64,000 bases of DNA from a bacterium (GTDB lineage: Bacteria; Patescibacteriota; Minisyncoccia; Phycocordibacterales; DATDWN01): positions 1,233 through 65,232 of the forward strand of contig JBAXLH010000004.1 in the NCBI GenBank assembly GCA_037134875.1, written 5' to 3'. A model generated the notes under the pieces. The model made no database searches, had not been told where the DNA came from, and saw nothing but the letters and a program-made list of their open reading frames with translations. Position 1 is the first letter of the stretch. Every line of letters begins with the position of its first letter. Shown here piece after piece: positions 419 through 56,195 of the stretch. Made by a program: the position numbers and the translations under genes.

Positions 419-527
419 GAATTTGACAGACTTGACCTTTTTGGAACATTGCGAGCGCGACGGCGCGAACACGAGGAATTTTCTAGCAAGAAAATATCCG
501 TTTCCAAAAAGGTAAGGCTGTAAAATT
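419..527 (+). repeat. palindromic repeat element, copy A (core ggaacattgcgagcgcgacggcgcgaacacgaggaattttctagcaagaaaatatccgtttcc)
   Basis: Same core as copies at 20521-20590 and 40015-40078. Flanks gaatttgacagacttgacc / ggtaaggctgtaaaattc form an imperfect long stem. Confidence 0.7.
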
Positions 528-542
528 CAAAAAAATAAAACA

Positions 543-686
543 ATGTCATTCACATACAATCCTAAAAAAAGAAAACGAGCAAAGGCACATGGTTTTTTGG
601 TACGAAGTAAAACAAAAACAGGCCGAAATACTCTTTTGAGACGACGACGAAAAGGTCGCAAAGCTATCACAACTGTTAAAAAATAA
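543..686 (+). CDS. rpmH: 50S ribosomal protein L34
   Basis: Translation [47 protein letters not shown]. It is below the 60-aa cutoff of the ORF track and is followed by rnpA. Confidence 0.9.
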
Positions 687-689
687 CCT

Positions 690-1028
690 ATGTTACCAAA
701 ACAGAGAAGAATTCAGAGGAAATTTTTCTCAGAGATTTTGAGTAAAGGTGCACGTTTTAATACAGAACACTTTCTAGTCTATATTCTCCAAACAGAGAAA
801 GAAAATCCTTCGCGGTTTTCTTTTTCTATTTCAAAAAAGGTTGCACAAAAAGCAGTCACCAGAAATCTATATCGTCGTCGCGGATATGCTATAATCTCTA
901 AGTATCTAGAAGACATAACAACAGGCTATAATCTCTTTTTTGTATATAAAAAAGGATCACTACCAGTTTCTTTTGTAGATCTGGAATCAGAAATTATATT
1001 ATTACTAAAAAAATCACACCTAATCTAA
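690..1028 (+). CDS. rnpA: ribonuclease P protein component
   Basis: 112 aa basic protein directly downstream of rpmH (conserved rpmH-rnpA-yidC synteny). Confidence 0.8.
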   Translation: MLPKQRRIQRKFFSEILSKGARFNTEHFLVYILQTEKENPSRFSFSISKKVAQKAVTRNLYRRRGYAIISKYLEDITTGYNLFFVYKKGSLPVSFVDLESEIILLLKKSHLI

Positions 1029-1033
1029 TTTTT

Positions 1034-1762
1034 ATGGGTTCACTCTTTCAAATTTTAATTTTTAAACCTTTTTATAATGGACTCGTATTTCTTATGGGCT
1101 CACTTCCCTTTTTTGATGCAGGGGTGATTATTATTATTTTTACAATAATTGTAAAAATAATTTTACTTCCTCTCTCAATCAAAGCAAGCAAAGCTCAAAT
1201 TGAAATGAAAAGTATTGAAAAAGATCTCAATAACATCAAAGAAAAATATAAAGATAACAAAGAAGAACAATCACGAAAAACAATTGAATTGTATAAAGAA
1301 AAAAACATAAATCCTTTTTCTGGATTTTTAATACTCATTATTCAATTACCAATTATTATTGGACTATATCAAGTTTTTCTCAAATCTGGCCTTCCAAAAA
1401 TAAATACAGCAATTCTCTACCCATTCATTATGGCTCCAGTGGCTATAAATATGATGTTTTTAAACATTATAAATATAGCTGACAAAAACATTATTCTTGC
1501 AATAATTGCAGGTATTACATCATATTTCCAAATAAGCTATGCAAGTAAAAATCAGCCACAGAATACAGGAACAGGAACTCAAAATGAAATTGCGCGGGCT
1601 ATGACAATGCAAATGAAATATTTCTTCCCTGTGTTGGTGATATTTATTTCATACAGCATTTCAAGTGCGCTTTCACTCTACTGGATTACCAGTAACCTAT
1701 TTGCTGTTGCACAGGAAATTTATATAAAGAAAAAATACCATCAAGCTGTCTCGGTGGTATAA
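1034..1762 (+). CDS. yidC: membrane protein insertase YidC/Oxa1 family (short form)
   Basis: 242 aa multi-TM protein at the conserved position after rnpA. Confidence 0.65.
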   Translation: MGSLFQILIFKPFYNGLVFLMGSLPFFDAGVIIIIFTIIVKIILLPLSIKASKAQIEMKSIEKDLNNIKEKYKDNKEEQSRKTIELYKEKNINPFSGFLILIIQLPIIIGLYQVFLKSGLPKINTAILYPFIMAPVAINMMFLNIINIADKNIILAIIAGITSYFQISYASKNQPQNTGTGTQNEIARAMTMQMKYFFPVLVIFISYSISSALSLYWITSNLFAVAQEIYIKKKYHQAVSVV

Positions 1763-1772
1763 TTTCAAAAAA

Positions 1773-53557: not shown

Positions 53558-53621
53558 TGTCCGATCTGTCTAGTTTCGGATAAAGCGTACTGTTCTTTGA
53601 AAATTCACACAAAGGAAACAA

Positions 53622-54224
53622 ATGATGGAAAATCGAGTTGTGTTTTTGGATAGACCCAAGACTCGGGTATATCTCAGTCCAGTAGAAAAAGGGGACTTAC
53701 CTTTTTTTACTAAGACAATGAATAATGAGGAAATTACTCGTTTCTTGCTTGGTCATCATCCGACAACAATGGAAGATGAACAAGTGTGGTATGACAGAGT
53801 TAGTAAACAACGAGAAAGTGATCGTATTTGTTCGATTATTCTTAAAGAAACACATGAAGTTATTGGTGTTATTGGTATTCACAGAATTAACTGGATAGAT
53901 AGAACTGCTGGTACTGGTGCATTCATTGGTAGGGAGGATTTGTTGGGAAAAGGATTGGGTACAGAAGCAAAAATGCTCTGGCTTAAATACGCTTTTCTAA
54001 CACTTAATCTTCGTATGATTATTTCTCGCGCATATGCCTTCAATGGCAGAAGCATTCGTTATTCGGAGAAATGCGGTTACAAACAAATCGCAGTGTATCC
54101 TGATTTTATTTTCCGCGATGGAAAGTATCACGACATGGTGCACCTTATGGTTACCCGCGAAATGTGGGAACCGCTGTGGCACGAGTTCGAAGCAAAAATG
54201 AAAGGAGAAACGAATGAAAAGTGA
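53622..54224 (+). CDS. GNAT-family N-acetyltransferase (RimJ/RimL-like)
   Basis: GVIGIHRINWIDRTAGTGAFIGREDLLGKGLGTEA, an acetyl-CoA binding motif. Confidence 0.7.
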   Translation: MMENRVVFLDRPKTRVYLSPVEKGDLPFFTKTMNNEEITRFLLGHHPTTMEDEQVWYDRVSKQRESDRICSIILKETHEVIGVIGIHRINWIDRTAGTGAFIGREDLLGKGLGTEAKMLWLKYAFLTLNLRMIISRAYAFNGRSIRYSEKCGYKQIAVYPDFIFRDGKYHDMVHLMVTREMWEPLWHEFEAKMKGETNEK

Positions 54225-55998
54225 GAAACGAAATCCACTGTCGTATCTGTTTAGTAAGATCTGGGAGTTTTCGCAAGGAAACAGAAAAAATGTTGTCTTG
54301 TATTGGATTCTGTTTATTTTTGCCAATGTCATAAACACGGTTTTTCATCCGATTGTGATGGCAAAGATTATGGATGTTTTGCAAAAGGATGGTATTACCA
54401 AAAATAATATTTCCCTTTTGTATTTTCTTCTGGGACTTACCTTAGTAAACGATCTAGTTTTTTGGGCGTTTCATGGTCCAGCCAGAGTTATCGAAAGAGT
54501 AAATGCATTTAAAGCCAGAATGAATTACAAAAAATTCTTGCTTAGTGGAGTTATGAACCTTCCTTTGCCTTGGCATATCGATCATCACACAGGTGATACG
54601 ATAGACAAAGCAGAAAAAGGTACGACTGCGTTGTATTCTTTTTCCAAAGAATCTTTTGAAGTCATCTCTTCTTTTGTCCAGCTTATTGTTAGCTTTTGCA
54701 TGCTTGCGTATTTTGGTGTGGAAGCTATAACCATCGTTGTAGTAATGATGGCGATTGCGATATGGATTATTATCCGATTTGATCAGGTGCTCATCCCACA
54801 ATATGTAAGCTTGAATAAATCAGAAAATCAAATATCTCAAGGCATTATTGATTCCATTAGCAATATTGGAACAATCATTGTTTTGAGAGTTGAAAAGTAT
54901 GTCTTCGAGGCTTTGTCTCGCAAAATGGAAAAACCGCTCGGGCTCTTTTGTAAAAATGCGAAGGTAAACGAAGGCAAATGGTTTCTAACAAATCTTTGCT
55001 GTACGATAATGTCCATTTTGGTAATGGCATTATATTTCTGGAAGAAAATAGGTACAAACCCAGCTGTTCTTGTGGCCAGTACTTTTCTTTTGTTCAGATA
55101 TCTGGAAAAGATCAGCGAATTGTTTTTTAGATTTGTTGGGAGATATAGCGACATTGTCATTTACAAAACTAGAATTGCAAATTCCGAAGAGTTGTCAAAT
55201 GATTTTGTCACTGGAAGTTTTGCAAATCATGTTTTGCCAAAAGATTGGAAAAAGCTCGAAATCAAAAAACTAAATTTCTCCTACCACATCGAGGGCGACA
55301 GCGATTTACATCTGGAAGATGTGTCGCTTTCTGTCCTACGTGGTGAAAAAATTGTTTTTGTAGGAGAAACTGGTAGTGGCAAAACAACTATGCTCAAGGT
55401 GATGCGAGATTTGTATCAGCCAAAGAGTGTGGAACTTTCTGTCGATGGTCAGATTATTTCCGATGGTTTTGCTGGTATCGCCAGAGCGATTGCACTTGTT
55501 CCGCAAAAACCGGAAATATTTGCCACAACTATTTTGGAAAATATTACTGTTGGAGTGGACTACGAGATGGGTTTTGTCAGGCATTTTACTGATATGACTC
55601 ATTTTACAGAAGTCGCACTGAACCTTCCAAATGGTTTTGACTCTTCTGTAAAAGAAGATGGTTTGGACTTAAGTGGGGGACAACAGCAAAGGCTAGCACT
55701 TTCTCGGGGACTTTTGGCTTGTTACGATAAGGAAATTGTTCTTTTGGATGAGCCAACCTCTAGTCTGGATGCTATCACTGAAATTACTGTTTACCAAAAT
55801 ATTCTGAGAGAATTTAAGGAAAAAACTGTGATCTCAACTACTCACGGTCTACATCTTTTACCATTTTTTGATCGAATTTGCTTTTTTAGCAAGGGTCGAA
55901 TTTTGGCAACAGGTACTCTGGACGAACTTCTTACATCTTGTCCTGAATTTGTAAATTTGTGGAGTGCTACACAAAAAGCATCAACAGAAATTGTGTGA
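54214..55998 (+). CDS. ABC transporter, fused permease/ATP-binding protein (exporter type)
   Basis: N-terminal 6-TM domain; Walker A GETGSGKTT, signature LSGGQQQRLALSRGLL, Walker B VLLDEPTS. Confidence 0.85.
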   Translation: MKSEKRNPLSYLFSKIWEFSQGNRKNVVLYWILFIFANVINTVFHPIVMAKIMDVLQKDGITKNNISLLYFLLGLTLVNDLVFWAFHGPARVIERVNAFKARMNYKKFLLSGVMNLPLPWHIDHHTGDTIDKAEKGTTALYSFSKESFEVISSFVQLIVSFCMLAYFGVEAITIVVVMMAIAIWIIIRFDQVLIPQYVSLNKSENQISQGIIDSISNIGTIIVLRVEKYVFEALSRKMEKPLGLFCKNAKVNEGKWFLTNLCCTIMSILVMALYFWKKIGTNPAVLVASTFLLFRYLEKISELFFRFVGRYSDIVIYKTRIANSEELSNDFVTGSFANHVLPKDWKKLEIKKLNFSYHIEGDSDLHLEDVSLSVLRGEKIVFVGETGSGKTTMLKVMRDLYQPKSVELSVDGQIISDGFAGIARAIALVPQKPEIFATTILENITVGVDYEMGFVRHFTDMTHFTEVALNLPNGFDSSVKEDGLDLSGGQQQRLALSRGLLACYDKEIVLLDEPTSSLDAITEITVYQNILREFKEKTVISTTHGLHLLPFFDRICFFSKGRILATGTLDELLTSCPEFVNLWSATQKASTEIV

Positions 55999-56015
55999 AT
56001 TAAATCAAAAAATCC

Positions 56016-56057
56016 CGCTTCCAGAAATGGAAGGCGGGATTTTCTTTTGTTTGATGT
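56016..56057 (+). terminator. rho-independent terminator after ABC transporter gene
   Basis: aaaaaatcccgcttccagaaatggaaggcgggattttcttttg. Confidence 0.55.
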
Positions 56058-56064
56058 GGTTAGT

Positions 56065-56195
56065 TTTCATTTCAAAACTTGTCGAAAACATATTCTTTTT
56101 TGAGGCTTCGCAGGCGGGTAGCCGAGACTTGAGAAATTTGCCAGCAGGCAAATATTCGTACTCAAAAAAGGATATGTTGAGTAAAAGTTTTGAAA
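56065..56195 (+). repeat. palindromic repeat element, copy I
   Basis: Core ttgaggcttcgcaggcgggtagccgagacttgagaaatttgccagcaggcaaatattcgtactcaa aligns with copy C. Arms caaaacttgtcgaaaacatattcttttt / aaaaaaggatatgttgagtaaaagttttg. ORF 55964-56254 is its spurious translation. Confidence 0.65.

Follow-up and report, generated by a model that had tools for sequence, protein, structure and literature searches.

The closest systems described so far are the Rickettsia palindromic elements (RPE) and the ERIC sequences. RPE are dispersed repeats of about 100–150 bp which form hairpins in a reduced genome, as Ogata et al. are said to have described in 2000. Many copies are in-frame within housekeeping genes and point either way; the proteins tolerate them as additional peptides on the surface. 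We know of no transposase, no clear target duplication and no established mobilisation mechanism for them. ERIC sequences, also called IRU, are found in Enterobacteriaceae and Vibrio: they are imperfect palindromes of about 127 bp, shared across genera, which occur in either orientation in transcribed intergenic regions. Their longer forms have insertions at fixed internal sites. To our knowledge ERIC have never been reported within coding sequence, nor do they have a branched core.

The window studied here, that is the whole stretch of 64,000 nucleotides analysed, carries a hairpin-shaped repeat, about 75 to 145 bases long, in 8–10 copies which all point in one direction. By analogy, it may work like RPE or ERIC. 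As in RPE, it is a dispersed palindrome with a stable hairpin, found in-frame in conserved genes and in either orientation. This likeness is one of functional class and not of sequence family: the hosts of RPE belong to a different phylum, and sequence homology with RPE-1 to RPE-8 across phyla is not expected. It differs from RPE by its asymmetric three-way-junction core with tandem G·A and loop-E-like modules, by a bias to abut stop codons antisense to the gene, and by being near-invariant across many genera. One variant with an insertion at the tip of P2 (37592–37790) resembles the ERIC forms with internal insertions. In contrast with ERIC, the repeat also occurs in coding sequence, has a branched core and belongs to another taxon.

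Structure of the repeat

The forward strand folds into a rod tipped by a conserved three-way junction of 74 nt. P1 is variable, P2 is UGC-GA-GCGC-GACG-GCGC-GA-GCA, with tandem G·A pairs, and P3 is GGAAUUUUUC-AGCA-GAAAAAUAUCC. The outer stem varies in length; a second tandem-G·A or loop-E-like module is common in it. Over the family the repeat has a median length of 111 nt (range 74–188). Covariation is extensive: 96% of cells are paired, as compared with 74% in shuffles, and double changes are found at 23 of the 24 pairs. The junction has an additional covarying pair, which is U-A in 44 cases and A-U in 23. The forward strand outfolds its complement in 113 of 146 copies; the tandem G·A and loop-E-like modules are sensible on this strand only. 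In an Rfam 15 scan only five tRNAs reach the gathering score and the repeat has no match, while permissive Rfam scans over copies and variants gave only noise. The family seems to have remained undescribed so far.

Copies in the window

We have used two covariance models. The first one (R1) was built from five window copies and searched with the filters off: it finds six copies, each with E <= 5e-12 and all on the plus strand; the following match has only E 0.06. The second one (R2) was derived from 102 copies of other genomes and finds the same six and two significant variants, again all plus. On the minus strand of the window the top match of the covariance models has only E 0.69. Weak matches at 26659, 26732 and 55467 were dropped, because they fold no better than shuffles. 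The fold z-scores of the canonical copies go from -6.7 to -9.8. A 5' fragment and a mosaic region, both plus, raise the tally to nine or ten. The sequence-only reading had counted nine copies in a single orientation between 419 and 56195, which agrees with the extent of the full hairpins and is borne out by the six canonical copies, the two variants, the fragment and the mosaic.

Copy 1 (414–533, core 438–510, R1 96.4 bits, z-score -6.7) lies in the dnaA-rpmH spacer and ends 11 nt before the rpmH ATG. Its site is empty in the relative L090, where the spacer is about 120 nt shorter. Copy 2 (18620–18764, core 18655–18730, R1 52.5 bits, R2 64 bits) is in-frame and antisense within the PcrA/UvrD gene (16922–19018, minus strand). 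Residues 78–134 of this PcrA are unmatched in the solved PcrA structures, which have 4 residues there instead; its closest homologues (68–69% identity) have 645–649 aa and no insert, as compared with 698 aa in the window.

Copy 3 (20486–20625, core 20519–20592, R1 98.8 bits, z-score -8.2) has a loop-E-like internal loop in its outer stem. Its 3' end is 10 nt away from the stop codon of ComM (20636–22204, minus strand), and the orthologous LysM-ComM site of L206 does not have it. Copy 4 (28646–28750, core 28662–28734, R1 84 bits, z-score -8.7) ends 2 nt from the stop codon of a T2SS-F gene (28753–29967, minus strand). Copy 6 (56061–56204, core 56097–56168, R1 79.5 bits, z-score -9.0) is of the same loop-E-like outer-stem subfamily as copy 3 and overlaps the ClpP stop codon (minus strand, 56202) with its 3' arm. 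A contig of the same strain ends inside this copy.

Copy 5 (39990–40100, core 40009–40081, R1 96.9 bits, z-score -9.8) has perfect arms of 28 bp and is found downstream of an EEP nuclease gene (39137–39934, plus strand). Its core is 95% identical to that of copy 1, but their outer stems are unrelated. Immediately before it there is the 5' fragment (39941–39996, plus strand), which is of the large-variant type, 73% identical to 37577–37632. The entire block of 165 nt which contains both (39935–40100) is absent in L206 and L207.

The large variant (37592–37790, plus strand) has 199 nt and an R2 match at 37686–37783 (23.9 bits, E 1.6e-4). At the tip of P2 it has an insertion of about 120 nt, with P1, the junction and P3 framed as in the canonical copies; its fold energy is -84 kcal/mol, with a z-score of -7.9. 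It is flanked by rpsO (minus strand, stop 37802) and by a NYN gene (minus strand, start 37470). The orthologous rpsO-NYN site of L103 has a canonical small copy in the matching relative orientation, whereas in L206 and L207 the site is empty. The second variant (44620–44734, plus strand, z-score -4.3), with an R2 match at 44634–44721 (24.7 bits, E 9.5e-5), follows tRNA-Pro(UGG); the 3' strand of its P1 is a duplicated tRNA-Pro 3' end.

The mosaic region (42140–42344, plus strand) lies between tRNA-Arg and tRNA-Gly. It has a fold energy of -110.8 kcal/mol (z-score -8.1), weak R2 matches on the plus strand and modules in common with the repeat: an AGCA-loop hairpin, a GACG-loop hairpin in a GGAA...UAUCC frame and GCGAG motifs. 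It is related to 44628–44718 (nhmmer E 4e-4) and has no Rfam match. We tentatively include it in the family.

Distribution in related bacteria

Relatives were sampled through a pattern match within the core of the repeat. Such matches are found in more than 113 blocks of 8 kb from Patescibacteria MAGs, which contain 143 copies. The family is widespread in Patescibacteria, in the Paceibacteria/Parcubacteria lineages. Its abundance is very uneven, with copy numbers differing about a hundredfold among relatives. Three syntenic relatives have no copy over 57 kb, and in 80 relatives the dnaA loci, 796 kb in all, contain 8 copies, as compared with 8–10 in 56 kb in the window. The repeat is a lineage-specific insertion, with empty sites in relatives.

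Of 149 copies, 24 (about 16%) lie in-frame inside long ORFs, essential genes included, and four reading frames are used. The host genes confirmed by Pfam are TsaD, PGM/PMM, UvrD, a class-V aminotransferase (Aminotran_5) and a methyltransferase. In the TsaD inserts of five genera the core is invariant in 47 of 49 columns, whereas the pairwise identity of the flanks is 66%. Since the TsaD site is a hot spot for insertions in general, with several unrelated inserts, a recent arrival or gene conversion explains the invariant core better.

These data bear on the possibility that the repeat is a structured RNA module with a function in the host, either a family of small RNA genes or an insulator or terminator of 3' ends against convergent transcription, conserved by host selection rather than by mobility. 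The near-invariant TsaD core and the RNA-type motifs could indicate such a function and not a selfish spread. The motifs and the G-U pairs are found on one strand only, the core hardly changes across genera while P1 covaries in the TsaD inserts, and copies directly follow stop codons, with a relative orientation that is fixed. Some sites are also occupied in distant genomes: the rpsO-NYN site, which is filled both in the window and in L103, and the 3' end of yidC, filled in L007, L153, L154, L157 and L193. However, close syntenic relatives keep the genes and have no repeat at any of the window sites. The variation in copy number, the presence of both orientations, the copies within coding sequence in four frames and 5' flanks with no conserved promoter also speak against it. 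We consider a host function unlikely, though it is the strongest of the alternatives. As to intrinsic (Rho-independent) termination, for which one would expect a short G+C-rich stem and then a U tract where a transcription unit ends, many copies are found directly after stop codons, but the stems are long and A+U-rich, with U runs before P1 and A runs after it; some copies are inside ORFs, and the relatives without the repeat keep their own terminator hairpins.

Relation to mobile elements

The repeat is similar to the Correia or NEMIS elements in size (100–155 bp), inverted-repeat ends, intergenic position, often at gene ends, and folding as RNA. These elements of Neisseria are MITEs with conserved terminal inverted repeats, a TA duplication and kinship to an IS family. 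Our repeat differs from them in having outer arms which diverge despite near-identical cores. No target duplication was found, as no consistent direct repeats flank the copies, and no autonomous partner was found when it was sought as split halves of the repeat flanking an ORF. A classical MITE was rejected on these grounds. Flanking GCGAG "direct repeats" were also discarded, since they are the structural tandem-G·A module. No enzyme which mobilises the repeat was found. An integron attC array, with cassettes tightly packed beside intI, does not fit either: the ends are unlike R''/R' boxes (RYYYAAC...GTTRRRY) and the copies are 2–20 kb apart among housekeeping genes.

The IS200/IS605 elements with their PATEs, and the REP/BIME repeats with RAYT, resemble the repeat as small, structure-dependent sequences after genes in which the folding of one strand matters. 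IS200/IS605 ends have two separate subterminal hairpins, left and right, with guide and cleavage tetranucleotides, and their orientation follows replication. In both types the genome has a Y1 HUH transposase or RAYT gene, usually with the repeats on either side of it. REPs are simple hairpins of 20–40 nt with a GTAG or CGTC tag (PMC3733652). The repeat is instead a single long palindrome; the three-way junction inside it has two hairpins unlike each other. The ends of the repeat have no conserved terminal tag among copies, and its orientation in the family is not replichore-wide. Palindromes are also found in organelles: selfish ones are described in Volvox mtDNA and ptDNA (PMC2670323) and coding ones in the mitochondria of Nematomorpha (PMC6649704). 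They are likewise short hairpins which spread in compact genomes, including coding sequence, and nest in each other; they differ in being simple, with no conserved branched core, and in belonging to eukaryotic organelles.

Orientation of the copies

The window starts within dnaA, the 5' end of which occupies 1–303 on the minus strand. The probable oriC is immediately to its left, in the dnaN-dnaA spacer, with four DnaA boxes (at most one mismatch) between window coordinates -1204 and -1061; a perfect box is also found at 386. To the left of dnaA the GC skew has negative values, while to its right it is zero or positive. The earlier proposal that the window begins at oriC and lies on one replichore is thus plausible, with the box cluster about 1 kb away and a change of skew at dnaA. 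Gene calls confirm that the neighbouring genes are on both strands, although minus-strand genes predominate. With a 50:50 model the shared orientation has a two-sided p of 0.03 with six copies and of 0.008 with eight.

From this uniformity the sequence-only reading had derived a mobilisation through single-stranded DNA, in which a HUH enzyme of the IS200/IS605 or RAYT type inserts the repeat into the lagging-strand template. Such a mechanism implies one orientation per replichore. In the window all 8–10 copies are plus, an oriC beside dnaA makes the plus strand the lagging-strand template, and the forward strand is the one which folds; tandem G·A pairs form stably in DNA as well. The relatives give a different picture. 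Among the 143 copies in other Patescibacteria MAGs, adjacent copies at most 8 kb apart are co-oriented in only 11 of 31 pairs and opposite in 20 (p 3e-13 if 90% co-orientation is expected), and both orientations occur in 18 of 28 multi-copy blocks. By the condition of refutation set beforehand the HUH reading fails in the family, as copies which are only a few kb from each other on the same contig point both ways. The family trend in GC skew is also contrary to that of the window: the strand of the repeat is C-rich in 79 of 132 blocks. Among the called genes in 81.6 kb of the contig there is no Y1/HUH gene (PF01797-type), and the repeat has no GTAG/CGTC tag and no separate left-end and right-end hairpins.

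A switch of orientation across the origin, which had been suggested as a check, is partly seen: in the dnaA loci of the 80 relatives, 4 of 6 independent origin-proximal sites fit it, but the syntenic relative L090 has a copy in the opposite orientation on the rpmH side of dnaA, 5 kb away. In the window contig the 9 kb across the origin have no copies. The four sites lean towards replication, so there may be a modest replication bias or a lineage-specific oriented burst. We regard HUH insertion as very improbable.

The other explanation offered beforehand, an effect related to transcription, is favoured. In 44 of 64 cases the 3' end of the repeat is at most 15 nt away from the stop codon of a gene on the opposite strand, whereas its 5' end is as close to a same-strand stop (the sense arrangement) in 15 of 50 (Fisher p 6e-5). 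Orientation is tied to the adjacent gene, with a bias of about 3:1 towards a folding strand which runs antisense to the gene at whose stop codon it lies. This bias could arise because mRNAs with the folding strand are selected against, or from strand-specific targeting. In the window the rule is obeyed beside minus-strand genes by the copies at 20519, 28662, 37592 and 56097. The repeat points either way in related bacteria, so the shared direction in the window is attributed to the direction of the neighbouring genes and chance: four copies would follow the stop rule, a fifth would be antisense inside a minus-strand gene, and the other three or four would agree by chance.

The uniform orientation might also be a trait of the window lineage alone, left by a recent local burst of directional copying (replication-coupled or by template switch, for example), with the older copies elsewhere reshuffled. 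Copies are much denser in the window than in the relatives, copies 1 and 5 have nearly the same core, copies 3 and 6 share one outer-stem subfamily, and eight copies out of eight on the plus strand still have p of about 0.02 once the gene rule is allowed for. However, other blocks of high density have mixed orientations and the gene rule already covers half of the window copies, which makes such a burst improbable as the source of the orientation.

Jointly, the data are best explained by small non-autonomous structured palindromic repeats, mobile or recently mobile, with an orientation biased by genes and not set by replication; we give this reading a probability of about 0.6. Copying would place the repeat, as a whole, in intergenic DNA, for the most part directly after stop codons. 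It would also enter the surface loops of genes, where it would be retained only if the reading frame stays open. An enzyme acting in trans would probably mobilise it by recognising the folded core. The lineage of the window would then have undergone a recent expansion of the repeat.

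Copies of the element and their fold

The initial repeat search had defined the family by a conserved centre of 73 nt with long inverted arms on either side. Every copy folds as a long hairpin, with z-scores from −6.7 to −9.8 against shuffled controls, and with five copies alone compensatory changes are seen in 11 of the 25 predicted pairs. A covariance model built from these five copies, run without filters, gives six copies with E ≤ 5e-12, all of them on the plus strand: 438–510, 18655–18730, 20519–20592, 28662–28734, 40009–40081 and 56097–56168. The following match already has E 0.06. 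A second covariance model, derived from 102 copies in other genomes, retrieves all six and adds two matches on the plus strand, 44634–44721 (E 9.5e-5) and 37686–37783 (E 1.6e-4). The latter is part of a 199-nt variant (37592–37790, plus strand), which retains stems P1 and P3 and the junction of the core and carries an insertion of about 120 nt at the P2 tip. On the minus strand of the window the top match of the second model has only E 0.69. The repeat search also gave a 5' fragment of the same type as the variant (39941–39996, plus strand), and a mosaic with element-like modules is found at 42140–42344 (plus strand). The sequence-only reading had counted nine copies in one orientation, and this is borne out: the model matches, together with the fragment and the mosaic, account for its nine, with none on the minus strand. 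Three weak model matches (26659–26722, 26732–26778 and 55467–55508) were dropped, since they fold no better than shuffles.

The fold was analyzed in 102 aligned copies. In them 96% of the cells are paired, versus 74% in shuffles, and 23 of the 24 pairs have two-sided changes; in slid controls pairing goes down to 43–60%. Mutual information adds one pair at the junction (U-A 44, A-U 23). With this pair P2 reads UGC-GA-GCGC-GACG-GCGC-GA-GCA, with tandem G·A pairs in the helix. The GACG and AGCA loops and several junction bases are near-invariant, although the sampling pattern itself fixed 21 of the near-invariant positions. A second non-Watson-Crick module is frequent in the outer stem, about 10–12 bp from the core. 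It has two forms, either GCGAG...GCGAG or 5' GUYGAR with 3' YGAGWAAG; the second form resembles a loop-E (bulged-G) motif. A G-U pair is present in 25 of 101 copies, and the forward strand gives the better fold in 113 of 146. These three features, the outer-stem modules, the G-U pair and the better forward fold, show that a single strand is the folding one; in the plain outer stem the G-U counts are equal between strands (279 vs 274). The element has a median length of 111 nt (range 74–188). When copies and variants were compared with Rfam, at the gathering score and at permissive thresholds, only tRNAs were found: the family matches none.

Several other features are found among the copies. 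In the spacer between tRNA-Arg and tRNA-Gly a region of about 230 nt (42104–42380, plus strand) has a minimum free energy of −110.8 kcal/mol, a z-score of −8.1 and no Rfam match. Its element-like modules are a hairpin with an AGCA loop, another with a GACG loop in a GGAA...UAUCC frame, and GCGAG motifs. The region is related to 44628–44718 and could represent either a source RNA gene or several elements nested in a mosaic. The 3' end of tRNA-Pro(UGG) with its spacer, CAATCAAAAAC, is present three times (44566–44616, 44709–44759 and 44755–44785). These repeats flank a variant element on both sides, and the whole (44566–44785) looks like repeated integration or duplication at the tRNA 3' end. 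A second family of small palindromic repeats has two copies, 20298–20428 and 40443–40515, with the common sequence CAAATTTGGCGATCTCCTAGTT; the copy at 40443–40515 is missing in the relatives L206 and L207. The intergenic block 40100–40442 starts with a perfect DnaA box, TTATCCACA (40106), and ends with a terminator-like hairpin and a T run. It is non-coding yet conserved in L206 and L207, and may be an unannotated ncRNA gene.

Distribution and insertion polymorphism

Relatives were sampled with a pattern derived from the core, and the five-copy model was then run on the matched blocks. The pattern matches in more than 113 blocks of 8 kb, nearly all of them from Patescibacteria MAGs with labels such as Paceibacterota, Nomurabacteria, Zambryskibacteria, Taylorbacteria, Yonathbacteria, Minisyncoccia and similar ones. 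One match in a Hyphomicrobiales MAG is an evident chance hit. The model gives 143 copies in these blocks.

Many sites differ in occupancy. Copy 1 (438–510) is missing in the syntenic relative L090, whose dnaA-rpmH spacer is shorter by about 120 nt. Three sites named by their flanking genes, LysM-ComM, EEP-CCA and rpsO-NYN, are all empty in L206 and L207, and in 57 kb of three syntenic relatives the five-copy model finds no copy; the rpsO-NYN site is filled in both the window and L103. Conversely, the yidC 3' end (filled in L007, L153, L154, L157 and L193), KsgA-PcrA and the region upstream of RNase Y are occupied in relatives and empty in the window. The genomes in which the rpsO-NYN site, or the yidC 3' end, is filled are distant ones. 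The dnaA surroundings of 80 relatives (DnaA identity 53–100%) have 8 copies in 796 kb, versus 8–10 in 56 kb of the window. The element is an insertion which has been recently active in the lineage of the window.

In six relatives (L027, L029, L034, L045, L083 and L028) there are closely spaced inverted pairs, 40–215 nt apart, which may be likened to BIME-like composite arrangements. A Logan contig of the same strain stops inside copy 6 (L119:1–59, corresponding to 56143–56204): the element appears to break short-read assemblies.

Copies inside proteins

Among 149 copies, 24 lie well within long ORFs, in both orientations and in four reading frames. The host genes are TsaD (five genomes, one site), PGM/PMM (two genomes), UvrD, a class-V aminotransferase and a methyltransferase. 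In the window the copy at 18620–18764 sits in the PcrA/UvrD gene and the frame stays open. Residues 78–134 are unmatched in solved PcrA, which has four residues there instead; the nearest homologues (68–69% identity) have 645–649 aa and no insert, versus 698 aa here. In relatives (P0029, P0030, P0032, P0044; L055) inserts of variable length and sequence, up to about 70 aa, occupy the PcrA loop that follows motif Ia. In L055 (3805–5979) a second copy of the element is found in sense elsewhere in the same PcrA gene.

The five TsaD inserts have 47 of 49 core columns invariant, with a pairwise identity of 66% in the flanking codons, and show compensatory changes in P1. In an unbiased set of 68 TsaD homologues the loop, which has 21–26 aa when empty, is a general hot spot with at least six unrelated types of insert; a few homologues have slightly decayed versions of the element's peptide. 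Since the loop is a general hot spot, recent arrival or gene conversion accounts better for the invariant core than long-term selection at the site does. The hot spot lies between PYPGGPxIS.LA and PRPM in Paceibacteria (homologues P0123–P0242; loci L062, L080, L096, L100 and L042). Its unrelated inserts have 20–35 aa, for example VVPGSL...ADGNNISSE, IPLPLTKGEAGRGF... and ELFKFSGPR..., and are probably other families of palindromic elements. A peptide search with the translated core gave two proteins only, which says little on the range of host genes.

Orientation with respect to replication

The window corresponds to 13542–77541 of CAZJNJ010000003.1, a contig of 91 kb in MAG GCA_964547445.1. 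In the window dnaA is on the minus strand and ends at 303; rpmH-rnpA-yidC run rightward. The dnaN-dnaA spacer, about 1.1 kb to the left of the window, has four DnaA boxes, none with more than one mismatch, and there is a perfect box at 386, which a relative has too. Left of dnaA the GC skew is negative; over the 40 kb to its right, where genes are mostly head-on, it is about zero, and then it turns positive. The DnaA-box cluster and the skew support the premise that the window lies on one replichore with the origin at its start, which probably holds; the plus strand is then probably the lagging-strand template. An alternative origin near 33 kb, where the gene strand switches, was considered, but the skew balance and the box cluster point to the dnaA locus instead. 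A region of about 31 kb (1773–33031), which starts 1.5 kb from the probable origin, has nearly all its genes on the minus strand; an oriC at dnaA would make them head-on to replication. It contains a T4SS-like cluster (VirB4/TraG-like, TraC-like, PrgI) and pilus/T2SS genes. Its gene order is unlike that of L206 and L207, a difference which suggests a rearrangement.

The sequence-only reading took the uniform orientation as a sign of replication-linked movement through single-stranded DNA, of HUH, IS200-IS605 or RAYT type. If replication set the orientation, copies a few kb apart should nearly always agree. In relatives they often disagree: neighbouring pairs within a block are in the same orientation in 11 cases and opposite in 20 (10 and 13 for pairs more than 500 nt apart), and 18 of the 28 multi-copy blocks are mixed. 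With respect to an expected co-orientation of 90% the adjacent pairs give p 3e-13, and of three contigs sampled in several blocks two are mixed. L090 is laid out like the window (dnaA minus, rnpA and yidC plus); its sole copy, found 5 kb from dnaA on the rpmH side, lies on the minus strand. The pairs, the mixed blocks and L090 speak against the replication-linked reading, which is not supported.

A switch across dnaA gives a less clear picture. In the genome of the window there are no copies in the 9.3 kb on the left of the window or in the 8 kb on its right. The 8 copies at the dnaA loci of the 80 relatives correspond to six independent sites. On the rpmH side the sites of the window and of yidC share one orientation and L090 has the opposite one; on the dnaN side two sites are compatible with a switch and one is not. 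Thus four of the six agree, a number too small to decide. The element strand has a slightly negative GC skew (79 blocks vs 53), but in 8-kb blocks skew is driven chiefly by the coding strand (Spearman 0.72) and is a weak proxy for replication. A handful of co-oriented repeats in one window is weak evidence of replication-coupled transposition.

Orientation with respect to the adjacent gene

The same reading had offered an effect related to transcription as a fallback, and this is supported by the position of stop codons. When the gene on the 3' side of the element is on the opposite strand, so that its stop codon faces the 3' end, the median gap is 9 nt and 44 of 64 cases lie within 15 nt. When a same-strand gene has its stop codon facing the 5' end, the median gap is 69 nt and 15 of 50 are within 15 nt (Fisher p 6e-5; binomial p 2e-4 for the split of 44 vs 15). 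In many cases the stop codon falls within the 3' arm. The type of intergenic region is near background: co-directional 60% vs 71%, convergent 21% vs 14%.

Four copies in the window lie next to stop codons of minus-strand genes: 20519 is 10 nt from that of ComM, 28662 is 2 nt from T2SS-F, 37592 is 11 nt from rpsO and 56097 overlaps that of ClpP. A fifth is antisense within the minus-strand PcrA, and minus-strand genes fill most of 1.7–33 kb. With a probability of the plus strand of 0.75 for the four copies which follow the rule and 0.5 for four others, the chance of eight out of eight on the plus strand is about 0.02, which is uncommon, yet hardly exceptional, for a pattern chosen by eye. The co-orientation in the window is largely a by-product of the local gene strand.

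Movement and comparison with other elements

The conserved fold of a single strand, the insertion polymorphism, the tolerance in frame and the gene-linked orientation bias are established features of the element. We have found no target-site duplication, and short direct repeats are only in weak excess. The recurrent GCGAG...GCGAG is not such a duplication: it is a structural part of the outer stem, the tandem-G·A module. The GCGAG repeats in TsaD are the host's own sequence. An autonomous form, with core halves split by an ORF, was not found, nor was a transposase gene in 81 kb; copy 5 (40009–40081) is adjoined by a XerC-like integrase and an EEP nuclease. A scan of viral contigs with the core pattern gave no match and thus no sign of a phage vector. 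The element lacks the defining features that were tested for IS200/IS605, REP-RAYT, classical MITEs, attC sites and all Rfam families. It works like the Rickettsia RPEs and ERIC.

The core would be a cis signal for an activity provided in trans, acting on it as ssDNA or RNA, and the copies with an intact core would be those still spreading. The orientation bias could come from selection against the folding strand in mRNA beside a stop codon, or from a transcription-dependent, strand-specific targeting. There are hints of a preference for hairpin tips as targets in the nested forms, namely the insertion at the P2 tip of 37592–37790, copy 5 after the 5' fragment and the TsaD hot spot. As a general rule this can only be inferred, since relatives at the EEP-CCA site have no visible prior hairpin.

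In a bolder reading the 74-nt three-way-junction module, in which tandem G·A pairs, motifs of loop-E type and the invariant loops GACG and AGCA are confined to one strand, would act in cis at the centre of a mobile element of a new kind, active in bacteria throughout Patescibacteria. Copying would pass through a folded single-stranded intermediate, which may be RNA. New copies would land preferentially at hairpin tips and gene 3' ends, in a transcription-dependent orientation, and so build up nested mosaics. Essential proteins such as TsaD and PcrA would gain peptides in this way, with no part for known transposase families. For all these parts jointly we consider a probability of about 15% appropriate.

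The element family is a more interesting result than its orientation: the variant is new, the kind is already known. In the limited body of papers searched none was found tying such elements to Patescibacteria. On the practical side, the element means broken assemblies and inflated predicted proteins. The genomes of Patescibacteria are tiny and streamlined, yet a dense structured repeat is tolerated in the lineage of the window. In different genera its sequence is the same at nearly every base; it lengthens essential proteins in frame and acts as a strand-specific mark of gene ends. It adds a second, independent case to the RPE phenomenon, long unexplained, and here the comparative data are far richer (thousands of MAGs); its mode of movement and the enzyme or RNA activity which recognises the fold are now testable questions.
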